NCBI GenBank assembly: GCA_048621635.1
Contig: JBMCWH010000002.1
Location: 2,227 to 66,226 of the forward strand
Source of the DNA: Patescibacteria group bacterium
Lineage (GTDB): Bacteria; Patescibacteriota; WWE3; JAUXAW01; JAYEID01
DNA length: 64,000 nt
Direction of reading: 5' to 3'
The position numbers and the translations under genes are program-made. This document shows, one piece after another, positions 1-64,000 of the stretch. Position 1 is the stretch's first letter, and each line of letters starts with the position of its first letter. The notes under the pieces are model-generated. The model had not been told where the DNA came from and made no database searches. It saw nothing but the letters and a program-made list of their open reading frames with translations.

Positions 1-1
1 T

Positions 2-436
2 AACAAATATTTTGATCGCTATAGTAAGGTGCAAGATTGGTTGGAGAAAGTAGCTCGTGATGCAGTTAAAAATGGATATTCAACTACCCCCATTGGAAGG
101 AAACGGGTTCACTCTGCTCCTGATCCAGATGATCCTAATCGGGAGCGTGCTATTGCCTCTATTGAAAGAAAAGGCAAGAATACACCTATTCAAGGAGCAA
201 GTGCTGATATGATAAAATATGCGTTGGTGTATGTTTGGAAAAGTTTAAAGAAAGAGAATTTAGATGCTTTTCCTGTACATACTGTGCACGATGAAATTGT
301 ATTAGAAGCCAATGAAGAACAAGCAGAACGGGTGAAGACAGTTTTAGAAGAGGAGATGAAGAGGGCAGGGGAGTTGATTTTGACGAAGGTACCTGTAAAA
401 GTAGATGCTATTATTTCGGATATCTGGGAGCACTGA
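2..436 (+). CDS. polA: DNA polymerase I, C-terminal end (gene begins upstream of window)
   Basis: Frame is open from the window edge to TGA 434-436. Family-A polymerase signatures NTPIQGASADMIK and motif C VHTVHDEIVLEA. Confidence 0.9.
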   Translation, partial: NKYFDRYSKVQDWLEKVARDAVKNGYSTTPIGRKRVHSAPDPDDPNRERAIASIERKGKNTPIQGASADMIKYALVYVWKSLKKENLDAFPVHTVHDEIVLEANEEQAERVKTVLEEEMKRAGELILTKVPVKVDAIISDIWEH

Positions 437-437
437 C

Positions 438-456
438 CTCCCAACAGAGTTGGGAG
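438..456 (+). terminator. Hairpin directly after polA stop (CTCCCAAC-AGA-GTTGGGAG)
   Basis: Perfect 8-bp stem with a 3-nt loop, 2 nt after the stop codon. No clear T-run follows, so intrinsic termination is uncertain. Confidence 0.35.
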
Positions 457-520
457 AAATAACCAATAACAAATTTTAAATTTTTAATTATCCGTAATTA
501 TTTTCAACTAATGGCTTTAT

Positions 521-925
521 ATGGTTTATCAACCTTGCGTAGTTAATGATTTAGAATATGATCCAGAAGAACGTACTGCGATTTTTGGTGAGGAAGTTAT
601 TAACTTTGCAAAAGAATTGACTAATGTAACAATAAATCGACCATTAATAAGTTAATTTATTAGATCTGGTACTAGTCTAGGTGCTAATTACATGGAGGCT
701 AATGGTTCTGAATCCGGTCAAGATTTTAGACATAAAATTGCTATATGCAGAAAAGAAGCGCGAGAAACGAAACATTGGTTGAGGATGATTGAAAAAGCAA
801 ACGCAGGTTGTACAGATAAATGTCAAAAACTTTTTAACGAAGCAGACGAGTTGGTTAAAATTTTTTCGAAGATTATTATTTCTTATGATGCAAATCAGAA
901 GAAAAGCAAAACAAAGAGATTTTAA
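521..925 (+). pseudogene. Four-helix-bundle protein (23S rRNA intervening-sequence protein family) interrupted by an in-frame TAA
   Basis: ATG 521 and the track ORF 692-925 share one frame. The joined product reads ...INRPLIS*FIRSGTSLGANYMEANGSES...ICRKEARETKHWL. The TAA at 653-655 sits where this family normally has Gln (CAA). Confidence 0.7.
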
Positions 926-959
926 AATTTAAAATTGGAAATTTAAAATTCCATTTCAT

Positions 960-3008
960 ATGGTTACTTGTCAAATTTGCGGGGAACGTCCCGCCACAAT
1001 TCAAACACAAAAGATAATTGATGGACGTCCAGTAATTCTTAACGTTTGTGAACAATGTTTATCGAAGCTCCAGTCAGGGGCTCAGGAGACGTCTGCCTTA
1101 GATAAGTTTGGGCGAGATCTTACGCAACTTGCCAAAGAAGGAAAGCTAGATCCTGTGATTGGGCGGGAAGAGGAAATAGAGAGAGTTATCCATATACTTT
1201 CTCGGAGAACAAAAAATAACCCAGTTTTAATTGGTGATCCAGGAGTGGGGAAAACAGCAATTGTAGAAGGGTTGGCCCAGCGCTTGGTAGATGGGCAGGT
1301 TCCGGAGACTTTGGGCGGGAAGAGGATAGTTGCTTTAGATATTTCTATGATGTTAGCTGGGGCGGGCGTACGGGGTGAATTTGAGAAACGGTTGAAGCAG
1401 GCAATAAATGAGGTAAGGGAGTCAGAAGGACAGATTATTTTGTTTATTGATGAGTTGCATATAATTGTCGGAGCTGGTGCTGCTGAGGGTGCAATTGATG
1501 CTGCCAATATGTTAAAACCTGCCTTAGCTCGGGGGGAATTGCGGGCTATTGGGGCTACTACTTTGGATGAGTACCGTCGTTATATTGAAAAAGACGGAGC
1601 ATTGGAACGCCGCTTTCAGCCGATAATCATTGAGGAATCCACAGTAGAAGAAACGGAGGAAATTCTTTTGGGACTCAAAGATAGTTATGAGGAACATCAT
1701 CAAGTAGTTATCACTGACGAGGCAATTGAAGCCTGCGCCAATTTGTCTGATCGTTATGTTACTGATAGATTTCTTCCCGACAAAGCAGTAGATCTTTTGG
1801 ATGAAGCCTGTGCAAAGGTGCGACTTTCTGCAATTGAGGAACCGGAGAACCTTCGTAGAGTCACGGAGGAGATTTCGGATATCAAATCACAAATTTCAAA
1901 TACTACGGAAAAAGAAAAGAAAGACGTGCTAAAAAGTAAATTAGAGGAACTAGAAAATGTAAAAGAAGAGTTAACTGAGATTTGGCGGCAGACAAAAATG
2001 GAAGAAGAACCGGAGGTAACAGAAAAAGATGTTGCGGAGATTGTTTCTTCGATGACTGGTATTCCCTTGGAGGATTTATCAGAAGAGGAACAAGAAAAGC
2101 TAGCGCATCTGGAAGAAAGGCTGCACCAAAGAATTGTGGGACAGGATAGAGCTGTTAGAGAGGTAAGCGAAGCTATTCGCCGGTCCCGTGCTGGATTAAA
2201 GGAGAAAAACAAACCAATTGGTTCTTTCCTCTTTTTGGGGCCAACCGGTGTGGGAAAGACGGAATTAACCAAAACCTTGGCAGAGGCTCTTTATGGTAAC
2301 GAGGATTTGATGGTTCGTATTGATATGAGTGAGTATCAGGAGCGTCATACGGTGGCAAGATTGATTGGGTCTCCTCCTGGTTATGTTGGTCACGAAGAAG
2401 GTGGACAATTGACAGAAACAGTTCGTCGTCGCCCCTTTTCTGTTATTTTGCTGGATGAAATAGAAAAAGCACATTCTGATGTGTTTAACCTTCTTTTGCA
2501 AATATTAGATGATGGACGATTAACCGACGGGCAAGGGAGAACAGTAGATTTCAAGAGTACAATTATTATTATGACTTCCAATGTGGGGGGTGAGCTGTAT
2601 TATCATACTGAGGGTGATTCTTTGGAGACTGTGGATACTGAACAGATTGAAAACGAAGTTTGGGAACGTCTGCGCCAGCTATTCAGACCAGAGTTTTTAA
2701 ACCGTTTGGATAGTGTTATTTTCTTTGATGCTTTAACTCCTAAAGAGATTAGGAAAATTGTTGACTTGGAATTAGACAAGGTTAGGGAACGACTTGAAGA
2801 ACAGGATCTAAAGTTGGAGGTTTCTGAAGAGGCAAAAGATTATCTTGCCCGGAAAGGGTTTGACCCTGAGTTTGGTGCCCGCCCTTTGAAACGTATTATT
2901 CAAAAAGAAATTGAGAATGTTATTGCAGGGAAAATTATCTCGGGTCGGGAAGGGTTAGGAGATACTGTAGAAGTTGATTGGCAAGACGGTGAATTGGTTA
3001 TAAGCTAA
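960..3008 (+). CDS. Class-I Clp/Hsp100 AAA+ ATPase (ClpC/ClpB-like) with an N-terminal McsA-type zinc ribbon instead of a Clp_N domain
   Basis: Two AAA+ modules (Walker A GDPGVGKT and GPTGVGKT; Walker B FIDELH and LLDEIEKA; sensor-2 GARPLKR). The N-terminus is CQICGERPA...VCEQC, followed directly by the NBD1 lead-in [27 protein letters not shown]. Confidence 0.9.
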
Positions 3009-3178
3009 CACTAAATTGTTGTTCGTCAATCTTCTTTCTATTTTTTATGCGCAAAGACGCCTACAGCGGTGCTCACGCTCAGCGTACCGACCCTCCGTCT
3101 TAGGGTGATGTTATTCGAGTGTTATTTCGATCGAAAAACTTTAATTTGTATCAACTACATGTTATAATCCTCCTCGTT

Positions 3179-3499
3179 ATGGAAAAAGAAAACATTCCTT
3201 CTTTCAATTCTGGCGACACAGTACGTGTGGGTTGGGAGGTTCATGATAATGACGAGACACGTGTTCAGACTTTTGAAGGTGTAGTTATTGCTAAAAAAGG
3301 AAAAGAAGATTACAAAACTTTTACTGTTCGTCGTATTGCTTCGGGTAGAATTGGGGTGGAGCGTATTTTTCCCTTATTTTCTCCTCGCCTAAAATCCTTA
3401 GAAGTGCTTAAGGAAGGCAAAGCACGTCGCTCTAAGTTGTACTATCTTCGTGACCGCGAAGGTAAAAATGCACTTCGTGTTAAGGAAAGAAATAAATGA
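3179..3499 (+). CDS. rplS: 50S ribosomal protein L19
   Basis: GDTVRV...RVQTFEGVVIAKKG...FTVRRI..G.GVERIFPL.SP is typical of L19. ATG 3179 is preferred over the track GTG 3119 because TGtTATAAT lies at 3160-3168. Confidence 0.9.
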   Translation: MEKENIPSFNSGDTVRVGWEVHDNDETRVQTFEGVVIAKKGKEDYKTFTVRRIASGRIGVERIFPLFSPRLKSLEVLKEGKARRSKLYYLRDREGKNALRVKERNK

Positions 3500-3864: not shown

Positions 3865-4039
3865 ACGTTAAACGCTACTTTTGACTGTGATCTAATCTTT
3901 GTAAATTTTTTTGATATAAAATAGGAATTTTTGAAGTTCACAATTGAAAATTGCTATTCTAACGAGGTTTCTTAGCTACGGTTAATGTGATACTAATTTT
4001 ATATTATACCTTGGATTGAGATTGGTAGAGGGGGTAGAG

Positions 4040-4606
4040 ATGTTAATTGAGGATGCGGAGACGTTTTTTCGTGAATCTTTTTCCGAAGGGGATCCTGAAT
4101 ACGTGCTCGGTCTTCAACACGTTGAAGAAGTTGTTGCGTGGGCTAAGTGGTTGTTGAACCACTATTCCCAAGCTGACCGAGCTGTGGTTCTTACTGCTGC
4201 TTGGCTGCATGATGTTGGAAGAACTACCAAAGATCATAGCACAGATCATGCTGTTCAGTCCGCACAAATTACTAGACGTTTTCTTAAACGTCGTCTGAAG
4301 CAAGATACCATTGCAAATATTGTTCATTGTGTTCGCGCGCATCGCGTGAAAGAGGTCGTTCCCAAAACACTGGAAGCAAAGATTGTTGCGGTTGCCGATT
4401 CTATTAGTCATATGACGGGTCCTGTTTATATCTTAGTTGGTAAGGAGTTAGGATGGGAATTTGCTTTCAGAAAATTGGATAGAGATTTTCGTGATCTTGA
4501 TCTTTTGCCAAAGATAAAAAAACTATTTGAAGATTTGTACTTCCCGTGGAAACAACTCCTGGGCGCTTCTGATATTGTTTGTGCTGTGCGGGACAAAGAA
4601 ACCTAG
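4040..4606 (+). CDS. HD-domain phosphohydrolase
   Basis: Has the AAWLHDVGR HD motif and downstream His residues. ATG 4040 is preceded by GAGGGGG (4028-4034), while the track start 4016 is TTG. Confidence 0.7.
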   Translation: MLIEDAETFFRESFSEGDPEYVLGLQHVEEVVAWAKWLLNHYSQADRAVVLTAAWLHDVGRTTKDHSTDHAVQSAQITRRFLKRRLKQDTIANIVHCVRAHRVKEVVPKTLEAKIVAVADSISHMTGPVYILVGKELGWEFAFRKLDRDFRDLDLLPKIKKLFEDLYFPWKQLLGASDIVCAVRDKET

Positions 4607-6369: not shown

Positions 6370-6441
6370 TTTTTAATGCACTGTATTTTATCTAAGCAAA
6401 GTATGTTGTTTCCAATAAGTTAAGGTGCTAAACTCAAACAA

Positions 6442-9400
6442 ATGAAGATAAAAAATGTAATTAAAATTCAACTTATTGGCATCTTTTCTTTGCTTCTTTT
6501 CTTTTTCTCTAGGTCTGGGCACGTCTTTGCTTATAATTCTCCGCGGATGTATCTAACTGATCTAAATATAGAGAGAACTGATTATCAGGTCGGGGATAAG
6601 ATAAGAGGAGAATTCAAAACCTGGAATACGGAGAGCTATGGGCTTGTAGGTGTAAATTGTCTTGCTTCGGTAGCTATTCCTTCAGAAAATACAGCGCCCT
6701 TGCAATTAGATTTGAAGAAAGTTGCAACCTTAGATTTTGCAGAGGAATCTAAGCGAACACACCAATTTAGCTACACACTTCCCGAAGCGCTACCCACTGG
6801 GACATTTACTTTTAAAGTCTTTTTAGAACTAGATAACGGAATCCCTCTTGGTTGGGATACTGAGAATATTGAAGTTCAGGGGGGTGGCCCTTTTATTTTT
6901 CTTGCTGATACTGCAGTTTTAAAAGATTCGGAAAGCTATCCACCGGGAGTGGGTGTGAAGTATCCTTCTAATCAATATCCTATTTTTAAATTTACTGCGA
7001 AAAATCAGAGCGCAGAAGAGCTCACTGTTTATCCCAAAATAACTGTTCACAAAAGGACCCAGGCCGGTGAGATTTTCAGAACATTGAAAAGACCTTCCCG
7101 TACATTCAAAGGAAAGGAAAGTAAAGCTATAGAAATAGATGGCCCTCTTCTTGATCTTCCGGGTACTTATATAGCTAAGGTTGCGCTCTATACTCAGGAA
7201 GATGTCTCTGTATCTAATCCTGTGATTTTTCGCTGGAGTGTTAAGGGTGTGAGTAGTACTATTCTTAATGTTACCCCACCGGAAGAAAATTATGACCAGA
7301 ATGAGCAGCCAGAAATCCGCGTAGATTATGCTGGGCCTGCGGACGGTTCTGATCAAGGGGAAGCGACTTTAAGAATTGAACTTTATGATGCAAAAGGTGT
7401 TGCAGGAGAGAAAGTGACAACTGTTGACCTTGGTCCTGAAGGGGGGAGTGTTACTTTGTCTCCCCAGCTAGGAAGGGCCTGTAAAGATTGCCAAGTTAGA
7501 ACTGAGATTTCCAAAGCTGGCACATCCTTGGATTCCAAGGATGTTCGTAATCTAGGAGAGTTATTGGATGAAGATGAAGCATCGCGTAAAGGGGGACGCC
7601 TTTTGTTGCAGGTAGGTATCTGTGTGGTTCTTCTGTTACTGGTGTTAGCAGCTTTAATTTTTGTTTTTATTTCTTCCGAGAAGAGAAAGAAAATTATTCA
7701 CCGCGTTACTAGGCTGTTTAGTTCAAAAGCTATGTTGTTTTTGTTAGCGTTTGGTTTTTTGTTTTCCTTTCCTAAAAACTGTTTTGCTGCCGGGAGTATT
7801 ACTTGGAATAAACCTCTACAAGATAGTGTTTACCTTCCCGGTGACGATATAGAGTTTCAAGGGATAGTCTATATAGATTATTGTGTTGATAAATTGTTTA
7901 ATTGGACTGTGGAATATAGTATTGTCGATGATAAGGATGATTCCACTAAGGAAGTTTTTCTAGGGCGTACTGTTGTTGATGACTCTTTTTACGACGGAAG
8001 TCATCATTACGAGATAAAAGTTTTTGATAGTGAGGGGACTGTTTTAAAGGAGCAAGAAACAACAAAACATCCCAGCCAATGGCCTGGTGCCCCTGGTGCA
8101 GATTCAGCTACCTATCCTACTTTTGATCCTGATAATAATCCTGTCTTTTTTGAATTCCCTTCTGGATTTAACCAGGAGTATGTATGGGCTAAGGTTCATA
8201 TGGAAGGAGAAGGATATTCGGGGGAGGTGGAAGCTACTGCTTATGAGCGGTTGAGAATCCCTCAGCAGAGTCTTACTGGCTATGTTTGGGAAGACGCTAA
8301 TAGCGATGGAGTGAAAGATTCTGGAGAGGATATTTCCGGGGAGGCAAGTGTGTGGTTAGATGATGTTACTAGACAGGAACTTGATCCCGAAGGTTTTTCT
8401 GTCAATGTTTCACCTGGTAATTATCGTGTCTATATTGAACCTGAGGGATGTTTTTGCCTTACGTACTGGAACAGAAGTTCTCCGCCATCTGATAGTGGAG
8501 CAGTTTTCAGTTACCAGGAAGATCTTGCTGGTGTCTGGTATGCTGATGTGGGTGAGATACAAGAAGACGAAAGTAAGCATGCTTATTTAGGAATTAAAAA
8601 AGCTGGTTTTGCCCTTGATCCTGTTTCAGAAGACCTTACTGTAGGCACAACTGGTTCAACTTCTGCAACATTTTTGATTGAACACAATGGTTGTTGGGAA
8701 AATAATGAGGAAATAGATTTATCCTTAAAAGATGTTCCTGCTGTCTCTGGTATTTCTGCTTCATTATCTCATAACAGTTTGGTTCCCACTGATACAGGTG
8801 TTAATTTTCGCTTGGATGTGGAGACAGATAATGCTCCTGAAGGTACTTATAATTTTCAAATTCGCGCCGAGGACGGGTGTGGAAATACTGAGTCTGCAAA
8901 TATTAGTTTGAAGGTAGAGGTACCTTTGATGGATGCTTGGTTTCAATCGGAGGCGGGAGATATATACGCACGAAAAGGAATTTCTAACATAATTCCCTCT
9001 GTTGATGAGGCACTTCCTTTTCGCAATGAATCCCGCTTTGTTGATCTAGCTTCCCAATATAATTACTTGTCAATGAGCAATACAAGTCCGGGTGTTATTC
9101 TCTCTGGCAATTCAATGGATCTTGGAACTTCTGGCGAAATTTCAGAGCAATCTTGGCAGGCCGAGGATTATCTGATAGGGTTTTACGATCCTACACCAGT
9201 GGAAAGGTATACATATGATTATAATTTCTTTGATGCAAACTTAATTGCGGATTGTGTGCTTACAGGTGATGCTGAAATGGGTGGGAGTGAGCAGGAAGGG
9301 GAAATCCTGACGGCAGACGGCAGCTGTACTCCTGCAAACAACCAGGTAATCAAAGTTAACGGAGATTTGGATATTCTTGGCGGAGAGGGTTTTCAAAATG

Positions 9401-10446: not shown

Positions 10447-10476
10447 TTGACACCAAGTTGTTAATTAATATATACT
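10447..10476 (+). promoter_or_regulatory. Sigma70-like promoter candidate (TTGACA-18 nt-TATACT)
   Basis: -35 TTGACA at 10447-10452 and -10 TATACT at 10471-10476, upstream of the mini-ORF and the gene at 10602. Confidence 0.4.
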
Positions 10477-10519
10477 GTATGTCAGTATTATAAGATATTT
10501 TCTGAGAGGAGGGAGGGGT

Positions 10520-10558
10520 ATGGGCACCTTAAAATTACCAGGCTTGGCTGTTCTTTAG
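10520..10558 (+). CDS. Candidate 12-aa leader mini-ORF (MGTLKLPGLAVL)
   Basis: The ATG is preceded by a very strong purine tract GGAGGGAGGGG (10508-10518). No homology argument is possible. Confidence 0.25.
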   Translation: MGTLKLPGLAVL

Positions 10559-10601
10559 TTGGCGTTCAGCTAAGTTAATTAGACCATTTTGAAGGAGAGT
10601 T

Positions 10602-11213
10602 ATGAAGTGGTTTACTGCACAGGTTGCCCCGGAGAAGTCTTTTGAGCTAGTAACCGAATATGGTGATGGGGTGTGTTCCAGTTGTTGGCGTTTGGATGAC
10701 GATAGGTTGCTGCCCGTTTCTCCGGGAGGTGAGGAGATAGTTTTGAACACTGATGGTAATCGTTATGCGATTGTCCAAAGTGAAAATCTGTTCCACTATT
10801 TTGTTTTGGGGAACAAGTTGTGTACCATTCGTGTTCCTGGTGGGTTGAGTGTAGAACCCCAGTTCTGCTTTTCTCGGGATAGACAGTTGGGTACTCCTGT
10901 GCTCGTTGTTTTCGGGGTTCCTCCAATGCTTGATCTTAGGCTTGCCGGTGAACAGCTTGGTTTTAAGTTCTCAAAATCTGGCTGGATTCCCGTGTCACTT
11001 CCTGCTAGCCAGATGAAAGTTATGGTGAAGACAGATTATTTTGGGTTAAGGGTTGTAGTCTCCCCCAAGAAGAAAATTGTAACTTCTTTTTGGAAGGAAG
11101 AAGGTGTTCGGGTCACCAACACCCCAATTGTGAAGGGCAAGGTGGTTCCCGACCATTGTCGGTGTGACTATTACTCTCCACAGATACTTAATGAAGTCTT
11201 TAGTGGGGACTAG
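10602..11213 (+). CDS. Hypothetical protein, 203 aa, no recognisable family
   Basis: ATG preceded by GAAGGAG (10591-10597), followed by a hairpin terminator. GC-richer than the flanks by eye. Confidence 0.6.
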   Translation: MKWFTAQVAPEKSFELVTEYGDGVCSSCWRLDDDRLLPVSPGGEEIVLNTDGNRYAIVQSENLFHYFVLGNKLCTIRVPGGLSVEPQFCFSRDRQLGTPVLVVFGVPPMLDLRLAGEQLGFKFSKSGWIPVSLPASQMKVMVKTDYFGLRVVVSPKKKIVTSFWKEEGVRVTNTPIVKGKVVPDHCRCDYYSPQILNEVFSGD

Positions 11214-11642: not shown

Positions 11643-12971
11643 TTACTGTAACTGTTGAATTTGGAGAACAAACGGTATGTACCCGTAAAATTCTATTTTG
11701 CACGTTCCTACGGTGCTTAGGTACATCACCTGTTCGCTTTCGGTTAATCTCCCTACAATGTACGGTGAGCGCGCAAAGTTTTCAGCGCTGGGTAAATTTA
11801 GTTTTTGTAGCGTTTTTTTAAGTGTATTGCTGGGTGGATTGTATTTACCGTACACTTTCCCGTTATATCCATAAACAGCGTTGATCACTTCTGAATCTAA
11901 CGGGTCTAGTTCGAATACTAGCCGCTGACCGCTTCCTTCCTCAGCCTTTTTCTGTAAAGCTTTTGCTGCCATTGAAGCCTGTGTTGTAAACTCCTTCTTT
12001 GTTAACTGCTCCCCTGTGTAGGGAAAGAGATTTACATTGTTGTTTTTCGCCATTACTGTGATGTCATGAAGTTGGAAAACCCCCTCACCGTTTCTAGGGT
12101 TTTTCAAAGAAAAATGAGTTGCTGTTTCTACGTAATGGAGAAAGGCTAAGCTGTAAGGAGGAATATCTTCCTCCTTACAGACTTCTACTATGGTTGGCCA
12201 AGCCCAATTTAGACGTGAAATCAGATCTTCTGAGAGGTAGGGATCAGAGTAACTAGAAGGTGTGATGAATTTACCTTTCTGTTGCTTGCTCGTATTATTA
12301 GCGGTTTTTGCAGGGTATTTGACATGTATAAGGGTGTAGGGTTTTCTGTAGTGGTAATCCTTTCCCCAGCAGCGTCCGCTGTGTCCAGCTACCTTTCCGT
12401 TTCCGATATATATTACAACATGTTGGAGATTTTCGTAAAAAATAATATCTCCGGGTACAAGCTCTTCGATGCTGTCGACCACTGTCCCGTGCTCTGGCAC
12501 AAGCCAATTGTACAACCTCGGAACGCTGATAAAGACTTCTTCATTTCCTTGCCATGCTCTTCCTGCTCCGAGATTATTGTAACCTCCAGAAGCAAGGCAA
12601 TGGGAAACAAAGTGGGCACAGTCTCCTCCGTATTTGTTGTAACTATATCCGCAATGGCAGACGGTGTTCCAGTATTTTTTTGCATAGGCTAGTGCTTTTC
12701 TTCTGTTTTCGTCTAGATTAGCAAAGCTCGAAGTCTCTTGGCTGGACACTCCATTGGCATCGACTGAAGTTATTAGTTTTGCGCTAAGCAACTGTTCTAC
12801 ATTCCCTAAAGAAACCTGGGGTGAGGTTTTGGCATTTGAACTAGTGGATAAGTGACCATTAACTGTTTCAGAGATATTTTGAGTTCTCTGGCTACCTACT
12901 ACTGAGATAGTGACAGATACAATAGCTGAAACAATGATTATGAAGGCTGGGGAGGAAGTTATTTTATTCAT
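11643..12971 (-). CDS. Membrane-anchored putative cell-wall amidase (Amidase_6-like Cys/His domain) with unknown C-terminal domain
   Basis: N-terminal TM segment and the GGDCAHFVSHCLASGG...GDIIFY...HVVIYIGNGKVAGHS motif set. ATG 12971 is preceded by GGAGG and overlaps the upstream stop (ATGAATAA). The track start is 13001. Confidence 0.6.
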   Translation of the reverse strand: MNKITSSPAFIIIVSAIVSVTISVVGSQRTQNISETVNGHLSTSSNAKTSPQVSLGNVEQLLSAKLITSVDANGVSSQETSSFANLDENRRKALAYAKKYWNTVCHCGYSYNKYGGDCAHFVSHCLASGGYNNLGAGRAWQGNEEVFISVPRLYNWLVPEHGTVVDSIEELVPGDIIFYENLQHVVIYIGNGKVAGHSGRCWGKDYHYRKPYTLIHVKYPAKTANNTSKQQKGKFITPSSYSDPYLSEDLISRLNWAWPTIVEVCKEEDIPPYSLAFLHYVETATHFSLKNPRNGEGVFQLHDITVMAKNNNVNLFPYTGEQLTKKEFTTQASMAAKALQKKAEEGSGQRLVFELDPLDSEVINAVYGYNGKVYGKYNPPSNTLKKTLQKLNLPSAENFARSPYIVGRLTESEQVMYLSTVGTCKIEFYGYIPFVLQIQQLQ

Positions 12972-13524
12972 CTTTTCCTCCACCTTCTTTTCTATAATCA
13001 TATTCTGGGTTCTGTTCCAGTGTTTTGGCCAAAGTTATCGACCAGCCATCCCACTGGTTTTTGTCAAGTGCTTTTTCGACAGATTCTGCCCACTCTTTGG
13101 CTTCTGAGCAAGTTTGTGGAACCTTCAATTGGCCAGAGAAATCGTCCGGATGCGTGCCTCTGGGAATTTGGGAGACTGCAGCCCAGAAACAGCCTTCCCG
13201 TTCCGCCTTTGGGTTGTTTGTAAAACAGTAATCCTCACCTGTTACGGTGTGTACTATTTGTTCCCAAGCAAGGTACCAGGATTCTCCTGCGTCTACTTTG
13301 ACAGTGTAGTATTCATCGCCTTTACCAAGAATTCCCTCATCGAGAAGCTTTTGAACCTCTTTTTCAGAGATCTTGTTAGCATTGTCCTTTTCAAGTGTGC
13401 TTGATTCGGCTTTAGTAGTTTCTAATTCATGGGGTTCACCTTCGCTGTTTTTACTACAGCCGCAAAAACTTGCACAAAGGGCAATCACCACCAGCAACAC
13501 AATTATTCCTTTTCCAAGCCTCAT
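12964..13524 (-). CDS. Lipoprotein, unknown function
   Basis: Signal peptide with a lipobox-like ALCASFCGC. AGAAAGGA lies upstream of the ATG. Confidence 0.6.
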   Translation of the reverse strand: MRLGKGIIVLLVVIALCASFCGCSKNSEGEPHELETTKAESSTLEKDNANKISEKEVQKLLDEGILGKGDEYYTVKVDAGESWYLAWEQIVHTVTGEDYCFTNNPKAEREGCFWAAVSQIPRGTHPDDFSGQLKVPQTCSEAKEWAESVEKALDKNQWDGWSITLAKTLEQNPEYDYRKEGGGKDE

Positions 13525-13567
13525 TGTCTCGATCCTTTCTACTATCTAGTGAGTTTTTAATGTGCAA

Positions 13568-54998: not shown

Positions 54999-56338
54999 TT
55001 CTGCAAAATTTGTTCTGCAAGAGTTGATCCCCATTGAACGGCGTAGTTCATCCCCCGATCCCAAGGATAGACGGTCTGCATATTAACTAAATACACATTT
55101 GGCAATGGTGTTTTTACTTGTGGGATTTTATTCAGAAATTTGGTAGTTACGATGGGTTGAGCTCGCAAAGAAGTTGTAAGGTGATAATCTTCCGTTGATT
55201 GAGGAGACTTAAAGTTAGGATTAATTTTTCTTAAATACGGGCTGAAATGCGCAAGTACTTGTTTTTTCTCCATTCTAAAGTATTTGTGTTCCGGAGGATA
55301 GTACCCACCAACATAAAGTAGATTTTTTTGGCCATACTTTTCCGAACTAACAAAATTTGTGTGTTCCACTAAAGCGACAAAAGGAAAGTCACTTTCATTA
55401 ATATTCAACCAGTAGGTCCCGTCAGTAAGAAAGGATTTATTCAATTCAAGAATTAAACACAAAGCACCCATCATCTTGGGTTTTTTCAATTTATTTTTGT
55501 ATTTTCTTGGCAAATTATGCGCAATCTCAGCCAATTGATCCGCTGAACCAGTAAAAACAACGGCATCAAAACGATCACGCAAATATTCCCAATCTTTTAT
55601 TTTCTTACCTAATTTAACAGTGCCACCTTGTTTCTCTATCTTGCTAGCAAGTGCATCAATTAACACCTGAAACCCGCCTTTTAAATAACCTAAGGAGGAA
55701 CTTCTCTTCTTAATCCGTGCCCAAATCCAGCTAGCAGAGACTTGTTTGTAATATTGTCCAAACTTTCCCCTAAGCAAAGGCTTCCATAAAAGTTCATAGA
55801 CTTTTCTACCGTACAAAGCGCGCAAAAAATTCTCAGCAGTCTTGTTTGTAAGCTTAGCAATTCTTTCTCTGTCTGTTTGCAAAGGCAAAGTTTTTTTATT
55901 GAATTGTCTCAAAAGATAATAGTCATCTTTTTTTTGATTAAATAACGGCGATTTTAAGTAAGCTGTTGCTAAGCCCACTCTAATTCGTTCTAAAATCGAA
56001 AGTGGTGTAAACTGTAAAACAGAAGAAGGAGAATCAAAGCGAAAAATTTTTTTCTTACTTTCATCTGTTTCCAAGTACAAAGCTGTTTTGGGCTGGGTAA
56101 AAAAAAGTTTGTCACCAAGACCTAACTCAGTAATAAGATCAATGATCGCTTTATCGGAGGTGAAGATATGGTGAAAAAATACTTCTAATCCCCACTCCCA
56201 ATTTTGTTTCTTTAATCCTCGAGCTAAACCTCCCAGATAATTTTCTTTTTCAAAGATAACAACCTTACACCCTTCTTTACTAAGTCGGTAAGCAGTTGTA
56301 AGTCCAGTCATTCCTGCTCCAACAATAGCAATTTTCAT
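54995..56338 (-). CDS. FAD/NAD(P)-binding oxidoreductase (amine oxidase/phytoene desaturase-like fold)
   Basis: N-terminal MKIAIVGAGMTGLTTAY...VVIFEK...GG dinucleotide-binding motif. Confidence 0.7.
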   Translation of the reverse strand: MKIAIVGAGMTGLTTAYRLSKEGCKVVIFEKENYLGGLARGLKKQNWEWGLEVFFHHIFTSDKAIIDLITELGLGDKLFFTQPKTALYLETDESKKKIFRFDSPSSVLQFTPLSILERIRVGLATAYLKSPLFNQKKDDYYLLRQFNKKTLPLQTDRERIAKLTNKTAENFLRALYGRKVYELLWKPLLRGKFGQYYKQVSASWIWARIKKRSSSLGYLKGGFQVLIDALASKIEKQGGTVKLGKKIKDWEYLRDRFDAVVFTGSADQLAEIAHNLPRKYKNKLKKPKMMGALCLILELNKSFLTDGTYWLNINESDFPFVALVEHTNFVSSEKYGQKNLLYVGGYYPPEHKYFRMEKKQVLAHFSPYLRKINPNFKSPQSTEDYHLTTSLRAQPIVTTKFLNKIPQVKTPLPNVYLVNMQTVYPWDRGMNYAVQWGSTLAEQILQK

Positions 56339-56434
56339 AAGTAAATTTTAACATGCCACGAAATTATAAGCTTAGCGGACTATTTAAATTCCTAAACACT
56401 AGATTATTCAGTGTTATAATGAACTAACTACTGT

Positions 56435-58473: not shown

Positions 58474-59088
58474 TTAAAAACGGCGAATTACTCCCACTAC
58501 CTTACCTTGTATCTGCACATTCGTTGCGTAGATGGGATCCATGGAAGAGTTTGCGGGTTCCAAACGAATACGGTCTTCTTCTTTAAAAAATTGCTTCAAA
58601 GTTGCAAAACCATTTTCCAGTAAAGCAACCACAATGTCTCCGTTTTCTGCCGTATCCTGCTGCTCAACTACCACGTAATCGCGGTCTAAAATACCTTCTT
58701 CAATCATTGAATCTCCTTTTACTTGTAGAACAAAAGATCGCTTCTTACCTGTGACCAGGCTAGGGGATATGGTTATAGTTTCTGTAGGATCTTCAATTGC
58801 CTCAATAGGTTCACCAGCAGCAATCATTCCTACAAGAGGAACTTCAATTCCTTCTAATGATTCTTCTATCCCACCTCCAATAACCTCAATTCCCCGCACT
58901 GCTCCTTTATACCGTTTTATTACGCTTTTATCTTCTAAAGTTTCAAGGTGTTCATGCACAGTGGCTAGTGAGGATAGATCCATAGCATCCGCAATTTCCT
59001 GCAAAGTAGGTGAGGTTCCGTGTTTTTGGATATATTGGGAAATGAAGTCCAAGATTTCCTTTTGTCTTTTGTAAAGGGTAACGGGCAT
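58474..59088 (-). CDS. lexA: LexA repressor
   Basis: N-terminal wHTH LTKRQKEILDFI-like segment (LYKRQKEILDFISQYIQKHGTSPTLQEIA), a hinge GMIAAGEPI matching the usual LexA cleavage-site context, and S24 peptidase KGDSM with a downstream Lys. Confidence 0.9.
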   Translation of the reverse strand: MPVTLYKRQKEILDFISQYIQKHGTSPTLQEIADAMDLSSLATVHEHLETLEDKSVIKRYKGAVRGIEVIGGGIEESLEGIEVPLVGMIAAGEPIEAIEDPTETITISPSLVTGKKRSFVLQVKGDSMIEEGILDRDYVVVEQQDTAENGDIVVALLENGFATLKQFFKEEDRIRLEPANSSMDPIYATNVQIQGKVVGVIRRF

Positions 59089-59094
59089 AATTCA

Positions 59095-59123
59095 ACCCTA
59101 CCCAAACTTTACCCGAATGTCAA
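59095..59123 (-). promoter_or_regulatory. lexA promoter candidate (TTGACA-17 nt-TAGGGT), -10 box 6 nt from the ATG
   Basis: -35 at 59123..59118 and -10 at 59100..59095. Confidence 0.4.
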
Positions 59124-59180: not shown

Positions 59181-61088
59181 TTATGAAGAGCGCAAATCTT
59201 TGACACCAAGGAAAAACCAGCGCACTCCCGCAAGTAGCAAACCTAAACCAAGCGGGAAGAGAAAATAAGGAGTTGTCAAAAAGTACCAAAAGGGTTGCAA
59301 CGTAATATCCTTCTTTAGTACTTTACCTGTTACTTCTTTCGAGTAATTTTCGAAACCAATTCCTACCTCAACTTGACCTGCCGATTCTTTATACCAAGGA
59401 GCAACAATCTTAAAATCTATTTTTTTCTCCGACCAGGGCGGTATAGTGCCTAATGTAAATTCCCTATTATCTGTTACCTTAATATCCTTTCCAACTAAAC
59501 GTACTGTAGTCGAAAAACTACTCTGCGGACCAGGGTTTCTAATAATTACCTCTCCAGATAAAGGCCAACCTGCCAAATGTTTACTCGGTAAGTCAATAGA
59601 AACATCCAGATTAGGAAATTCTTCTACCTGGGTGTTTTCCTCTGAAAGGAAATTCACGTTGATAGTGTCATTTTGATCGGGAGAAAATTTGTACGTTCCT
59701 GCAGGATTAGGTGTTTCCGAGCTAAGACCTTTGTAGGCAAAAACTATATGAGAAAAATCAAAGGCAGAGAAGTACTCCGCACCTCCTGTGGTTGAGCCCC
59801 AAGTAGGGTCGACTGCCCACCAGCCAACATCGGGGATATAAACCTCAACCCATGAATGTAAAACATCACTTTGCTCTGTTCCTAGACGTCTATCCTCGAA
59901 ATAAGCATACCCCTCTACTAACCTTGCCGGAATTCCAGCTGCTCTACAAAGTGTCACTAACAAATCTGCGTATTCAGAACACAAAGCAGTATTTTCTTGT
60001 TCCAAAGCAGCCGTAGCTCCCAAGCGTTCGTAGGGTTGGCCAACTTTTTCCTCAGCATAACTTAAATGAGAAACAACAAAGTTGTATAAGGCGTAGGCAT
60101 TCTCTGTAACTGAGTTTTGTCTACTAGTCACTCGGCGAACAATTTCTTGAATTCTACTATTTTCCGTTTCCCAAAACTCCTTTGCTTGTGTATATTGTCT
60201 TGTAATTTCTTGGGGTATAGAATTGAGATCAGCCCCATTAAAAATTTCTTTTTTCTTATAAGTAACAAATGCTTTGCCCTTAAAATTAACCTTTAACTGT
60301 TCTTCTTCAGCTAGAAAATATTTAGCTAAATAGTTACCATCTTGATCAACGCGTACCTCTTCAGGATGAGGATCAATCGATTCGTAAAAAATTTTTTGTC
60401 TTTCCGGAACATCGGGAACCAAAGCAATTTCTGTATATGCCCGTTGAGTAGTGTCATTCTTTAAATAATAAGTTAAATCTAAAGAATACTCTTGATGATC
60501 ACCAAAACCTGCTCTAACACCTTGATCTTGGATATCTTTATAAAGGAAAATCAAAGTTTGGTAATCGGATCCTTTTTCTTTCTTGGAAGGAGAAGGGGAA
60601 ACATAAGCAACTTTTCCATAGCTTTCTGAGACGCGTAAATTTATTTGGTAATCTTTTATACCTGTTTGTTGACGGACACCAGGCAGCAACACTTCTAAAA
60701 CACTTCCGTGGAGAGTCGCTACATCAGTCTCAAAACCAAGCTCCCAGTTTAAGGTATTACCTTTACCAGCAACAGGTCGGTCAAAAGATGTCTCAATCAC
60801 CTTGGATTCTTTCTTTTCCACCAAATTTACACTTAAAGAGCCACGGGAATCCCTTGCCCACAAATTTTCTACTGCAATATTACCAACATTTAAGGAATGT
60901 TCCGAAGCATAGTACTCATCTGTTAAGTTGGTTAAAGAAATCTTCTGAACAACTTCGCAAGAACCGTCTTTCTTTATTGTATAAGTAACATTGTAAGAAG
61001 TTTCAAAATCACCTTTAGCATTAGAAAGGCGGGGAAAAAGAATCCAGGGCAAGAAAGACACCAGCAGTGCAATTTTTAATTTACCCAT
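59181..61088 (-). CDS. Secreted transglutaminase-like (Cys-His-Asp) protein with C-terminal TM anchor
   Basis: Signal peptide, CSEYADLLVTLCRAAGIPARLVEGY, HSWVEVY..VGWWAVDPT and a C-terminal hydrophobic segment. Confidence 0.8.
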   Translation of the reverse strand: MGKLKIALLVSFLPWILFPRLSNAKGDFETSYNVTYTIKKDGSCEVVQKISLTNLTDEYYASEHSLNVGNIAVENLWARDSRGSLSVNLVEKKESKVIETSFDRPVAGKGNTLNWELGFETDVATLHGSVLEVLLPGVRQQTGIKDYQINLRVSESYGKVAYVSPSPSKKEKGSDYQTLIFLYKDIQDQGVRAGFGDHQEYSLDLTYYLKNDTTQRAYTEIALVPDVPERQKIFYESIDPHPEEVRVDQDGNYLAKYFLAEEEQLKVNFKGKAFVTYKKKEIFNGADLNSIPQEITRQYTQAKEFWETENSRIQEIVRRVTSRQNSVTENAYALYNFVVSHLSYAEEKVGQPYERLGATAALEQENTALCSEYADLLVTLCRAAGIPARLVEGYAYFEDRRLGTEQSDVLHSWVEVYIPDVGWWAVDPTWGSTTGGAEYFSAFDFSHIVFAYKGLSSETPNPAGTYKFSPDQNDTINVNFLSEENTQVEEFPNLDVSIDLPSKHLAGWPLSGEVIIRNPGPQSSFSTTVRLVGKDIKVTDNREFTLGTIPPWSEKKIDFKIVAPWYKESAGQVEVGIGFENYSKEVTGKVLKKDITLQPFWYFLTTPYFLFPLGLGLLLAGVRWFFLGVKDLRSS

Positions 61089-61177
61089 CGTAGATTAATA
61101 TTAGCAAGTTTCCGTAAATTGAAAAACAGCTAAAAAGAAATTTACTTTCTGCTTAATTTGCACCAATACCCCTTTTC

Positions 61178-61594
61178 ATGGTAAATTTTAGAAGGATGAA
61201 AATACTATTTCGACACCTTCTGATCACAGGAGCGGTATTTTGGGCACTTAGTACCTATACGCCCTTAGTCACCGCTGAAGATACACAAAGTCTACTTATT
61301 TTCGTGGTCGTCCTAACTTTATTGAACGTAATTGTTAAGCCGGTATTGAAACTGGTTACTTTACCATTAACAATTGTAACCCTAGGTTTGTTCAGAGGTC
61401 TATTAAATTTGGCAATATTATACTTTACAATCTGGGCTATTCCTGGTGTTTATCTTAACGAGTTTTATTTCCCGGGTTGGCAGCAAGGAGGTTTTTCACT
61501 CCCTGCTTGTCACGTTCCGCGCATAGGAACTTTTTTGCTTGTTTCCTTTTCTCTATCTCTTGCTTTTGATTTATTAGGAAAATTACTTGACTAA
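61178..61594 (+). CDS. Phage_holin_4_2/DUF360-like small membrane protein
   Basis: VKPVLKLVTLPLTIVTLGLFRGLLNLAIL pattern. The start may be ATG 61196. Confidence 0.5.
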   Translation: MVNFRRMKILFRHLLITGAVFWALSTYTPLVTAEDTQSLLIFVVVLTLLNVIVKPVLKLVTLPLTIVTLGLFRGLLNLAILYFTIWAIPGVYLNEFYFPGWQQGGFSLPACHVPRIGTFLLVSFSLSLAFDLLGKLLD

Positions 61595-61806
61595 TGAACA
61601 CTGTATTACAGACCTTACACATAATTACTACTTTACTATTAATTGGTTTAATCTTAATCCAATCAAAAAGTCTTGGGCTCTCTCCTGCTTTTGGTGGAGA
61701 TAGGGAATACCACACCAAAAGAGGGGTTGAAAAATCTGTTTTTATTATGACCATAGTGTTTAGTGTTATTTTTCTTCTTCTCTCACTCGTAGCAATAATA
61801 ATCTAA
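61594..61806 (+). CDS. secG: Preprotein translocase subunit SecG
   Basis: 70 aa with two TM segments and LILIQSKSLGLSPAFGG. Confidence 0.7.
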   Translation: MNTVLQTLHIITTLLLIGLILIQSKSLGLSPAFGGDREYHTKRGVEKSVFIMTIVFSVIFLLLSLVAIII

Positions 61807-61815
61807 CTAGTAACA

Positions 61816-63216
61816 ATGAATATAGGTAGAATTATCTTGACCGCAATAACAACCCTGTTAGCGTCTTTTTCTAACCAAACTTCTCATGTAGAAGGTGTTG
61901 TTGGCCAACCACAAAACCTGCATCCATTAACCATCCAGAAAAACACCTTCGACAGAGATTTGGGAACCTTAGTCTTTTCCGGTCTTACCAAAATTGCCCC
62001 CGACGGCACAGTTAATCCAGATTTGGCACATACTTGGGAAATTTCCGAAGACGAGAAAGAATACACATTTTATCTAGATCCAGAAAGAAAATGGCATGAC
62101 GGAAAGCCCGTAACTGCAGATGATGTTATCTTTACTGTAGAAAACCATACTACTTTCCGAGAGCTGGAAGTGGAGAAAATCGACAATCGGACAGTGAAAT
62201 TCAAGCTAGAAGAACCATTTTCTCCCTTTCTTCACCTTCTTAACATTGGAGTTGCTCCAAAACATATCGACTATGAGCAGGAAGGATACAAATTTATAGG
62301 GAGCGGACCTTATAAAATAATCAATGTCAAAAAAGGAATTCGCAAAATAGATGAACTAAAACTTAAGAAATTTAACGCTTCCAGTAAGGGACCGGCAAAG
62401 ATTATTTTCAGATTTTACGAAACGAAGGACGAACTTTTAGAAGCAGCAAAGTTAGGGGAACTGGATGGCTTTGCGCATGGTCAGATTGATTGTAAAACTT
62501 ACCATTCTGTGGAAACGCCACTCTTGGGAAGATATTTCGCTCTATTCTTTAATCTTAGAGATAAAGACTTACTGAAAGAAAAAGAAACGCGACGCATTTT
62601 AGCAGAAGCAACACCAAAGGAAATGATAATTGATAAATTAGAGCAGGTAGCAGAGATAAAACAAGGTTCTTACCCTCTTCCAGAGGAAATTGAACTACCA
62701 CAGACAAGCAGTACAGAAACAACCTTAACAGGTAACATAAGTCTGACTTATCCAAAAAAAGAAAAATATGAACAAATTGTGGAACTGCTTAAAAGATCTT
62801 GGGAGGAGCTGGGAATTGAGGTAACACTAGAAGCTAAAGACGCAAGTATCTTAAAAGAGACAGTTGTTCCAGAGCGAGATTTCGATGTTTTGCTAATGGG
62901 ACAGGAAGTTTCTAAAGACCCGGACCGTTATACCCTTTGGCATTCAACTCAAGCATCTTACCCTGGTTTGAATCTGACGGGTTTGGAAAATGTACGAGCA
63001 GATAGAGCCTTGGAAGAAGCAAGAAGAACAAGCGACGGTGAGGAAAGAAAAGAGCATTATCAAAACTTAAAAAATGTTACAGAAGAAGAAATTCCCGCAA
63101 TATTTCTTTACCGTCCTACCTATATCTATCATATTAGAAAACGCCTTGGGAAACCAGACTTGGAAGGTATATATACACCAGAAGATCGCTGGGAACGTAT
63201 TTTCGAACTGTATTAA
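61816..63216 (+). CDS. ABC transporter substrate-binding protein, family 5 (peptide/nickel type), orphan
   Basis: GLTKIAPDGTVNPDLAHTWEISEDEKEYTFYL....KWHDGKPVTADDVIFT. No permease or ATPase genes are adjacent. Confidence 0.7.
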   Translation: MNIGRIILTAITTLLASFSNQTSHVEGVVGQPQNLHPLTIQKNTFDRDLGTLVFSGLTKIAPDGTVNPDLAHTWEISEDEKEYTFYLDPERKWHDGKPVTADDVIFTVENHTTFRELEVEKIDNRTVKFKLEEPFSPFLHLLNIGVAPKHIDYEQEGYKFIGSGPYKIINVKKGIRKIDELKLKKFNASSKGPAKIIFRFYETKDELLEAAKLGELDGFAHGQIDCKTYHSVETPLLGRYFALFFNLRDKDLLKEKETRRILAEATPKEMIIDKLEQVAEIKQGSYPLPEEIELPQTSSTETTLTGNISLTYPKKEKYEQIVELLKRSWEELGIEVTLEAKDASILKETVVPERDFDVLLMGQEVSKDPDRYTLWHSTQASYPGLNLTGLENVRADRALEEARRTSDGEERKEHYQNLKNVTEEEIPAIFLYRPTYIYHIRKRLGKPDLEGIYTPEDRWERIFELY

Positions 63217-63857
63217 AATCCTTTTAGGAGCTCTTCTAGAGCCTCACCCGGCTCGTTTGAGGTAACTATTGCTGAAGACACTAACACTCCACCTGCATCT
63301 AGCTCTAGGGCGGTGGATACATCTTCCTCTGAACAAACCCCCGCTCCTGCTAGCAAAGGAACGTTTCCTGCCGCGGAGGCCACTTCTTTAATGATTTCCG
63401 GTTCCGAAGAGGTTACAGAAACATCGCCGCCGATTAGTTCTGGTGGTTCATAGGCAATAACGTCTGCAAAAGTTACTAGTTGCATAACCATTAATGGAGA
63501 GTCGGTACAGACAACTGTCTTGAGATCTTGATCTTTACAACGCTCTGCAGCAGCTTCGACCATATCTGCACTTAATGGGTGTTCAGAATGGTTAATTAAC
63601 GATCCCTCTGCACCGGCAGCTTTAACAGCCTCACAAGTAACAAAGCCAGTTGTTTGCTCAGCTTCAAAAGGATCAACGTGCTGAGAGTAGACAGGAAGAT
63701 CAACTGCAGAAGAGATTCGGAAAATTTCAACAGGAGAGACGGTAAGCACAACTTCAACATCGGAAAAATCAGCAGCAGTTTCCTCTAATTCCTTAGCCAA
63801 CTCAACACCCGCTTCTCCAAGAGACTGTTTATAATTTTTGAAATTAACAATTATCAT
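63213..63857 (-). CDS. tpiA: Triosephosphate isomerase, short archaeal type
   Basis: IIVNFKNYK, LINHSEH, AYEPPELIG, AGAGV and GVLVSSAIV align with the ~220-aa archaeal TIM pattern. ATG 63857 lies 6 nt after GATAAT, and the track start is GTG 63875. Confidence 0.8.
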   Translation of the reverse strand: MIIVNFKNYKQSLGEAGVELAKELEETAADFSDVEVVLTVSPVEIFRISSAVDLPVYSQHVDPFEAEQTTGFVTCEAVKAAGAEGSLINHSEHPLSADMVEAAAERCKDQDLKTVVCTDSPLMVMQLVTFADVIAYEPPELIGGDVSVTSSEPEIIKEVASAAGNVPLLAGAGVCSEEDVSTALELDAGGVLVSSAIVTSNEPGEALEELLKGF

Positions 63858-63936
63858 AAATTTATTATCTGTCACCCTTCGCTAAACTCACTACTAGGTC
63901 CCGACCAGTCGGGACCTAAGCTCGGAGAGCGTAAGG

Positions 63937-64000
63937 TGGTGCCTCCGAGAGGATTCGAACCTCTAACCTTGGGCTTAGAACACCCTTGCTCTAATCCATT
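63937..64000 (-). tRNA. tRNA-Arg (anticodon UCU), 3' part; 5' end lies beyond the window
   Basis: The reverse complement reads ...GAGCAAGGGTGTTCTAAGCCCAAGGTTAGAGGTTCGAATCCTCTCGGAGGCACCA. T-arm, acceptor 3' strand and CCA are clear. The anticodon stem has an A-A mismatch. Confidence 0.7.

Follow-up and report, generated by a model that had tools for sequence, protein, structure and literature searches.

The question raised by a 64-kb stretch of Patescibacteria DNA (contig JBMCWH010000002.1; the whole stretch is called the window below) is how its genes mark the start of translation. An earlier note on this DNA had described two regimes: TATAAT-like −10 promoter boxes lying directly before the start codons of core genes, and Shine-Dalgarno (SD) sites before genes of accessory, possibly acquired, character. 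A large part of bacterial diversity belongs to the Patescibacteria. Since almost all knowledge of them comes from metagenome assemblies, their gene expression is inferred from sequence alone.

Our reading, to which as a whole we give a probability of roughly 0.75, is the following. About half of the independently transcribed genes would be driven by a sigma-70-type promoter that immediately adjoins the coding sequence, usually with an extended −10 element (TGnTAnnnT) and a weak −35 element, the box lying 5–10 nucleotides (nt), mostly 6–9, before the ATG. Transcription would begin at the ATG's own A or 1–4 nt upstream of it, and the 5′-terminal AUG of the resulting leaderless or near-leaderless mRNA would be bound directly by the ribosome and initiator tRNA, without SD pairing. 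SD pairing would serve start codons located within an RNA: (a) at operon-internal genes, often with overlapping stop and start codons, and (b) at a minority of genes heading a transcription unit, which would combine a −35/−10 promoter with a leader of 45–200 nt and a strong GGAGG-type site, frequently together with a hairpin terminator. Within this scheme we infer both the positions of transcription start and the SD-independent mechanism of translation.

The window has a GC content of ~40% and encodes ~54 genes; systematic counts rest on a table of 53 of these. Pfam confirms the gene names proposed earlier across the window. They include genes of DNA repair and recombination (uvrA, uvrB, uvrC, ruvA, ruvB, ruvC, lexA), of iron-sulfur metabolism and tRNA modification (iscS, iscU, thiI) and of central metabolism (a glycolysis, PPDK, pduL-ackA and pyruvate:ferredoxin oxidoreductase set, and tpiA), together with a ribosomal protein gene (rplS). 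Open reading frames (ORFs) and Pfam domains read through normally under genetic code 11, with TGA as a stop. A leaderless-type box was scored as TANNNT ending 5–10 nt 5′ of the start, with TGnTANNNT as its extended form, and a strong SD as a duplex free energy (dG) of ≤ −7.5 kcal/mol within positions −20 to −1 of the start.

Promoter-type boxes abutting start codons

All 12 hexamers that had been reported are present where they were placed, each ending 5–10 nt before an ATG. Over the gene table, TANNNT occurs at this distance in 22 of 53 genes (mean of dinucleotide shuffles 9.6, z = 4.6), and TGnTANNNT in 14 of 53, against 0.57 in shuffles (maximum 5 in 2000), 0–2 at other offsets and 1% before internal ATGs, which served as a control. 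Could this be chance in an AT-rich genome, or the outcome of start codons picked to fit the motif? TANNNT is indeed common at 40% GC, being found in 9–14 of the 53 genes in each of the other 6-nt offset windows, and a generic −35/−10 scan returns no more sites than it does in shuffles (only its top-scoring sites were used). We nevertheless consider this explanation highly improbable: the extended motif stands at ~25 times its expectation and is confined to distances of 6–10, and a blind rule that takes the first ATG of each long ORF leads to the same outcome, with an extended box in 13 of 50 genes versus 0.5 at control offsets. The ATG is, moreover, the first possible start of its ORF, with no alternative upstream, in 16 of the 22 box genes; their Pfam domains begin at residues 1–9, and the independent NCBI annotation, which is GeneMarkS-2+-based, has the identical start in eight of the ten leaderless-type genes tested. 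TGnTANNNT was not enriched in 368 genes of 80 diverse bacterial uvrB loci, where its frequency of 2% equals the control and its profile is flat.

The boxes are a property of genes that come first in their unit (22 of 43, versus none of the 10 operon-internal genes; Fisher p = 0.003), and the start codon is ATG in all 22 cases. It had been claimed that no ribosome-binding site accompanies them, and all 22 do have an SD dG above −7.5; for lexA the value of −6.9 is due to a G-rich −10 box. At rplS, box and ATG are separated by 10 nt (3169–3178, + strand) that read CCTCCTCGTT, which is anti-SD-like rather than SD-like. Alignment of the promoters on the −10 box reveals TG at −15/−14 in 14 of 22 and a weak TTG-type −35 element ~17 bp upstream, which is perfect (TTGACA-17) at lexA and at the IS200-like transposase gene. 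The proposed TAGGGT box of lexA is correctly positioned and makes a poor −10 element, yet lies 17 bp downstream of that perfect TTGACA.

Comparison with relatives was carried out on six loci of the same family that are syntenic with the window (L082, L083, L165, L166, L167 and L168). The nearest RuvB relatives form a small clade of 67–79% identity, the next ones, at ~60%, being in other phyla. Among the matches listed for UvrB, identities were 49–55% over many phyla, which did not help to place the taxon. Because many Memo-carrying metagenome loci (L085–L164) belong to other lineages, some above 60% GC, and dilute the signal, statements about the family are based on these six loci only. Under the blind rule, 17 of their 90 genes have TGnTANNNT at a distance of 6–10, versus 0.5 at control offsets. 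Orthologues of IscS, ThiI, RuvB, UvrC, UvrB and L19 keep a box 6–11 nt before the start at 47–77% protein identity, and the sequence around these conserved boxes has diverged. A few GTG starts are present among the relatives (L19 in L083 and an aminoacyl-tRNA synthetase in L082). A peak of the extended box at 6–7 nt (25 versus about 4 expected) is present in ~800 genes of further loci, most of them from Patescibacteria, which indicates that the design is found more widely in the phylum at a lower frequency. Distances from box to ATG are commonest at 7 and 9 nt in the window and the six family loci and at 6–7 nt in L084–L164; the longer spacing in the family suggests leaders of 1–3 nt or a longer distance between the −10 element and the transcription start.

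The boxes might also be read as A/T-rich sites for non-SD ribosome binding, or as unstructured "enhancers", on leadered mRNAs whose transcription starts further upstream, as in Bacteroidota (group B in the GeneMarkS-2 scheme). Upstream regions that are A/T-rich and poor in SD sites do occur in many other Patescibacteria loci, and part of the Parcubacteria has been reported to lack the anti-SD motif (PMC9297842). In the window itself, thirteen first-in-unit genes have neither box nor SD (uvrA, mgsA, DUF763, ackA, Memo, pmbA and others), and SD-independent initiation on leadered RNA therefore probably exists; three of them, uvrA, DUF763 and ackA, begin only 32–36 nt after the preceding gene and may be co-transcribed with it and translated without SD. 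As an account of the boxes, however, this reading appears improbable to us. The motif is an extended −10 element with a TTG(ACA)-like −35 element ~17 bp upstream and not a generic A-rich tract, and it is missing from 10 of 10 operon-internal genes, the very criterion that parts group C from group B (PMC6028130). At the divergent methylase and porG genes the −10 boxes overlap within a 17-nt spacer too small for leaders, and any longer leader would have to start inside the neighbouring gene. Leaderless or near-leaderless mRNAs, as the earlier note supposed, thus provide the best-supported reading for first-in-unit genes, in view of the motif, its spacing, the exclusive use of ATG, its absence from internal genes and its recurrence in orthologues.

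Shine-Dalgarno starts and the genes that carry them

The second regime is real as well. Strong SD sites precede 11 of the 53 genes; control windows placed further upstream give 0 and 2, and internal ATGs have such a site in 4% of cases. The ten operon-internal genes include three with a strong and three with a moderate SD and four with weak sites only; core genes are among those with strong or moderate sites (ruvC, with a TTG start, porD, ruvA, UPF0102 and GPI). Eight first-in-unit genes have a strong SD, and seven of the eight lie between 10.6 and 20.3 kb. High-scoring promoters (10–11 of 12 matches) occur 45–200 nt upstream of the genes starting at 10602, 13524, 14349, 20319 and 33458, and long hairpin terminators are found 3′ of several SD-led unit heads, for example at 13718–13749, past the end of gene 14349. 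The AAAGGA that had been listed for gene 13524 is present, but as a weak site (dG −5.7). One cassette is fully self-contained (33124–33687): it encodes an orphan protein of 93 amino acids (aa; 33458–33177, − strand) followed by a 13-bp hairpin terminator (33124–33153), and its slot between DUF763 and ThiI is empty in L166 and occupied by an unrelated ORF in L167.

An excess of hairpin-plus-T terminators is seen in the first 20 kb of the window alone (29 versus an expectation of 18.7 ± 4.1); the two 20-kb stretches that follow (20001–60000) contain 14 and 13 where ~18 are expected. The longest stems adjoin SD-led accessory genes (11542–11569, 13718–13749 and 17169–17188, with another at 33124–33153), and core leaderless units are mostly without canonical terminators.

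Does the SD class correspond to accessory or acquired genes, as was proposed? GC content at third codon positions (GC3) is higher in this class than in leaderless-type genes (0.386 versus 0.322, p = 0.003; first-in-unit genes only, p = 0.0009) and its synonymous codon usage is atypical (p = 0.002). Of the ten genes whose synonymous usage is most atypical, nine belong to the 10.6–20.3 kb block or are gene 33458. SD-class genes are also shorter than leaderless-type genes and more often without a Pfam match (5 of 11 versus 0 of 22, p = 0.002), and both SD-led unit heads searched for homologues (15207 and 10602) are orphans: the former has a single distant homologue among 5.8 billion clustered proteins, and for the latter none was found among 1.84 billion representatives. 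SD-led unit heads occupy slots that vary among relatives. In 83 related loci comprising 874 genes, singletons make up 52% of SD genes versus 30% of extended-box genes (p = 0.007) and GC3 is higher in SD genes (p = 0.005); diverse bacteria show no such difference (p = 0.57). A membrane or secreted bias was considered as an explanation of the SD class and discarded: 6 of its 11 genes encode envelope proteins, but leaderless genes include envelope proteins too.

The proposal therefore holds for SD genes that head their own unit and fails as a division into core and accessory genes as such: core genes within operons use SD sites too, and ruvC changes regime with its place in the operon, in keeping with the two-regime reading. 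Likewise, the suggestion that the SD set coincides with GC-richer regions is only partly correct, since 16–19 kb falls below the mean GC of the window. Being short, mostly Pfam-less, orphan in the two cases searched, rich in GC3, atypical in codon usage and variable in position, the SD-led unit heads are most likely recent insertions, presumably of foreign origin, that would have brought canonical signals with them or been built with them.

One case is a 4.4-kb segment between tRNA-Glu and tRNA-Ala. The tRNA-Lys, -Glu and -Ala genes are contiguous in L082 and L083, and in the window this cluster is interrupted by the segment, which parts tRNA-Ala from its ancestral neighbours. Conserved flanks (PolA-ClpC-L19-UPF0102 ... 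Memo on one side and UvrB-UvrA on the other) enclose a variable block whose content, between Memo and UvrB, is non-homologous among the window, L082 and L083. In all three, hypothetical genes of the block have GGAGG sites. A prophage origin of the SD-rich block was not adopted, since PHROGs yielded no phage signal beyond a polynucleotide-kinase-like match and an NlpC/P60 domain similar to tail lysins.

Another account, plain group C usage, would have operon position alone set the regime, the accessory link being a sampling artefact of one 10-kb block. It draws on ruvC, which is operon-internal in the window, with an SD and a TTG start, and first in its unit in L165, L167 and L168, where TGnTAAnAT lies 6–9 nt before an ATG; operon position, and not gene identity, thus sets the regime. 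Core internal genes use SD sites as well, seven of the eight SD-led unit heads are clustered, and the TauE gene, leaderless-type yet atypical in composition, suggests that it is the island and not the regime that composition follows. As a complete explanation we nonetheless find it doubtful. In L082 and L083 too, hypotheticals of the variable block have GGAGG and L19, UvrB and an aminoacyl-tRNA synthetase have abutting −10 boxes; SD genes of the 874-gene set are less conserved and richer in GC3 where those of diverse bacteria are not; and isolated cassettes (33124–33687 and gene 4040) lie outside the block.

Several observations weigh against the two-regime scheme and the insertion hypothesis. 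All within-window counts cover 64 kb of one genome only, and the anti-SD sequence is an assumed one, the window being without a 16S rRNA 3′ tail. The thirteen unit heads with neither signal mean that the two regimes leave part of the genes uncovered. The commonest distances from box to ATG, 7–9 nt, exceed the classical 6–7 by 1–3 nt, so that many transcripts may have leaders of 1–4 nt rather than none. Within-window composition tests involve few independent units, most SD-led unit heads being in one 10-kb block. Some genes are accessory and yet leaderless-type, among them the IS200-like transposase gene and, within the insertion, TauE, whose composition is as atypical as that of its SD-led neighbours. 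For the segment, neither Pfam nor PHROGs searches found an integrase or recombinase, no flanking direct repeats were found beyond tRNA similarity, and no donor lineage emerged for the inserted DNA, 10602 and 15207 having zero and one homologues.

A broader interpretation, which we regard as possible but rather unlikely, is that leaderless initiation is the native default in this family and, to a lesser extent, across the phylum, that it is tied to the reduced ribosome of the Candidate Phyla Radiation (CPR), and that a leadered, terminator-bounded SD cassette is the mark of genes recently arrived or recently born. Start type would then become a marker of the flexible genome, and domestication would shift genes from SD-led to leaderless.

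Escherichia coli ribosomes without bS1 and bS21 favour leaderless mRNAs, a preference that, we infer, may extend to CPR ribosomes. The latter are reported to have a short bS1 and to have often lost bS21 (PMC9297842), features that would gain a possible functional context if much of the core genome of a CPR lineage were leaderless. In that case, start callers favouring SD sites would also misplace starts, and a −10 box plus ATG could serve as a cassette design in new Patescibacteria genetic systems.

Individual loci of the window

The features on which the above is based are collected in Table 1. Two likely errors in NCBI start positions were noted in the window, the Memo-AMMECR1 fusion being 22 codons short and a small secreted protein 13 codons short. 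The fusion (4784–6325, + strand) is annotated by NCBI from GTG 4850 (491 aa) and called in a Logan assembly from ATG 4784 (513 aa). The GTG start drops the IRPPA of the motif IRxPAVAG, which is conserved in 30 homologues, and translation probably begins at ATG 4784. No −10 box abuts this ATG and no SD precedes it; a TTTACA-16-TGnTAAAAT promoter (4683–4710) lies ~70 nt upstream. For the secreted protein (17210–17635, + strand), the strong SD claimed previously is real and the start codon is an ATT: ATT 17225 lies 5 nt past the SD AAAGGGGGTGA. NCBI places the start at ATG 17264 (123 aa), which cuts the N-region of the signal peptide. An orthologue of 136 aa begins MKKLLYSIAVFAVIFGLAS... and has the length of the ATT-start form, making ATT most likely the start used. 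Just upstream of this SD, a promoter-like TTGACT-16-GATAGT (17082–17109) is followed ~60 nt on by a hairpin terminator (17169–17188) plus a T run; the element (17082–17195, + strand), for which an Rfam search gave no match, may represent a small RNA or a leader of the attenuator type.

The two DUF389 paralogues of the inserted segment (16397–16948 and 18692–19348, − strand) are 80–87% identical in DNA, lie 2.3–2.4 kb apart and share a dual-start arrangement, C-TAGTTT-a/gCTACA-ATG-GAAAAAGGAGa/gGCAc/g-ATG, with a TACAAT box overlapping the first of two in-frame ATGs and the SD situated between them. The SD sites noted for starts 16921 and 19321 are therefore present, but six codons upstream of each is an in-frame ATG, which NCBI chose. 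The copy at 16397 is shortened.

A 112-nt tRNA gene (35372–35483, − strand) scores 47 bits in Rfam with a full cloverleaf, and ARAGORN makes no call for it. A stretch of 45 nt stands against 6 consensus positions of the anticodon loop, and the insert forms an extended anticodon-arm hairpin; CUUCUAC is a possible Arg(UCU) anticodon loop. For a bacterial tRNA, a short insert in this place is unusual. A promoter with 11 of 12 matches (35691–35719, − strand) lies ~200 nt upstream, and the ThiI-IscS gap of L167 contains odd tRNAs of 89 and 78 nt. The short SD-less leader of mgsA contains CGAATAAAACCC (30674–30694), which is kept in L166 (~3250–3275, just upstream of the MgsA start), the promoters being different; a role of this sequence in regulation or translation is possible. 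Finally, a short ORF (692–925, + strand) encodes a truncated 23S rRNA intervening-sequence protein domain, PF05635 (77 aa, profile positions 48–104), of which a full-length copy is found beside ruvB in L168 (9111–9479).

Table 1. Start signals, cassettes and tRNA genes of the window. Distances are from the −10 box to the start codon.
Feature	Position	Strand	Signals	Remarks
clpC-like	944..962	+	TAAAAT, 10 nt, ATG 960	weakest of set, no TG
rplS (L19)	3160..3181	+	TGtTATAAT, 10 nt, ATG 3179	L082/L083 orthologues: TGnTAnAAT 9 nt before start
HD-domain gene	4020..4042	+	SD GAGGGGG (dG −12.2), ATG 4040	not at this position in L082/L083
VWA surface protein	6426..6444	+	TGcTAAACT, 7 nt, ATG 6442	
Orphan 10602	10447..10604	+	TTGACA-18-TATACT (10447–10476), ~120-nt leader, SD GAAGGAG, ATG 10602	
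NlpC/P60 amidase	12969..12991	−	SD GGAGG, ATG 12971	operon-internal
Lipoprotein-like 13524	13522..13653	−	TAGACA-17-TGnTATAAT (13625–13653), ~95-nt leader, SD AAAGGA	
Membrane orphan 14349	14347..14428	−	TTGACA-17-TATATT (14400–14428), ~45-nt leader, SD GGAAGGGAG	
tRNA-Lys(ttt) + tRNA-Glu(ttc)	14903..15090	+		
Segment between tRNA-Glu and tRNA-Ala, 4.4 kb	15091..19537		orphan 15207 (SD GGGAGGTG), two DUF389 paralogues (SD AAAGGAGa/gG), secreted 17225 (SD AAAGGGGGTGA + ATT start), TauE	four SD-led genes + TauE
TauE	18545..18583	−	TTGCCC-17-TATTAT, 7 nt, ATG 18547	leaderless-type, within inserted segment
tRNA-Ala(ggc)	19538..19612	+		
Gene 20319	20317..20402	−	TTGACT-17-TATATT (20374–20402), ~47-nt leader, SD GGAAGGGGAGG	
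uvrB	20453..20493	+	CTGACA-17-TGaTAGAAT, 9 nt, ATG 20491	L082, L043 orthologues: box 8–9 nt before ATG
ASCH/DUF3850	25885..25905	−	TGaTACAAT, 9 nt, ATG 25887	
uvrC	26136..26153	+	TGtTAAAAT, 6 nt, ATG 26151	
tldD	27572..27591	+	TGtTACAAT, 8 nt, ATG 27589	own box only 34 nt past uvrC stop
Self-contained cassette	33124..33687	−	TTGATA-16-TGnTATAAT (33660–33687), ~200-nt leader, SD AAGGGAG	
thiI	33798..33818	+	TGcTATACT, 9 nt, ATG 33816	L166 TGgTATACT-9-ATG, L167 TATTAT-9-ATG
iscS	35751..35769	+	TGgTATCAT, 7 nt, ATG 35767	L165, L166, L167: TGnTAAAAT 9–11 nt before ATG
iscU	36981..37021	+	TTGAAT-16-TATAAT, 10 nt, ATG 37019	
ruvC	37394..37416	+	SD GAGGAG + TTG start	operon-internal, start overlapping iscU stop
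IS200-like transposase	39309..39346	−	TTGACA-17-TATATT, 6 nt, ATG 39311	
ruvB	39465..39504	+	CTGAAA-17-TGtTAGAAT, 8 nt, ATG 39502	four orthologues: TGnTAnnAT 7–8 nt before ATG
Phosphoglucomutase	40634..40655	+	TGaTACATT, 10 nt, ATG 40653	
Enolase	44970..44985	+	TAATAT, 7 nt, ATG 44983	
pduL	47907..47921	+	TAAAAT, 6 nt, ATG 47919	
Divergent pair methylase/porG	50397..50419	−/+	methylase (−) TATGAT 50405–50410, ATG 50399; porG (+) TGtTATCAT 50401–50409, ATG 50417	17 nt apart
porD	50944..50966	+	SD AAGGAGGT, ATG 50964	operon-internal
Amine oxidoreductase	56336..56353	−	TGtTAAAAT, 6 nt, ATG 56338	
lexA	59086..59123	−	TTGACA-17-TAGGGT, 6 nt, ATG 59088	
Transglutaminase-like	61086..61106	−	TGcTAATAT, 9 nt, ATG 61088	
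Holin-like membrane protein	61179..61198	+	TGgTAAATT, 8 nt, ATG 61196	
tpiA	63855..63869	−	GATAAT, 6 nt, ATG 63857	near-consensus box

Comparison with known systems

Within the library searched, literature searches for leaderless genes in Patescibacteria, CPR, Saccharibacteria or Parcubacteria returned no substantive description, and a preprint on the TM7x transcriptome does not discuss transcription starts. The closest model is group C of GeneMarkS-2, in which a Pribnow box lies ~6–10 nt before operon-first genes and SD sites are used elsewhere; it was reported mainly for Actinobacteria and Deinococcus-Thermus, with 25–50% of units leaderless (PMC6028130). Group C genomes of genetic code 11 are reported to be almost all high-GC, and for the low-GC, code-4 members (Mycoplasma and relatives) 30–60% of transcripts are predicted to be leaderless (MetaGeneMark-2 preprint).

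The design of the window is best read as of the group C type, as in Mycobacterium tuberculosis, M. smegmatis, Corynebacterium, Streptomyces and Deinococcus deserti: TANNNT stands ~6–10 nt before operon-first genes, SD sites serve internal and leadered first genes, and leaderless starts strongly prefer AUG. At 51% of units, the leaderless-type share is just over the range for that group. In contrast to these genomes, the window has ~40% GC and belongs to the Patescibacteria, the extended TGn form predominates among its boxes, and orphan or inserted genes make up most of the unit heads that have a leader and an SD. If much of the core genome of a CPR lineage proved leaderless, group C would be extended to a low-GC, code-11 lineage outside Actinobacteria and Deinococcus. 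The link between SD cassettes and inserted orphans goes beyond the standard group C model and is the less expected part. With the code-4 group C of Mycoplasma the window shares a small, reduced, low-GC genome, but it uses code 11, TGA being a stop, and belongs to another phylum.

Group B of the Bacteroidota resembles the window in that most genes are without SD and have A/T-rich upstream regions. There, however, internal and first genes share one motif, on mRNAs that have leaders, whereas in the window the motif is promoter-like and limited to first genes, with strong SD sites elsewhere. Lastly, the variable block recalls genomic islands at tRNA loci in its conserved flanks, its location next to or inside a tRNA cluster, its atypical GC3 and codon usage and its orphan genes; it differs from them in that searches of the block found no integrase, direct repeats, duplicated tRNA end or phage signature.

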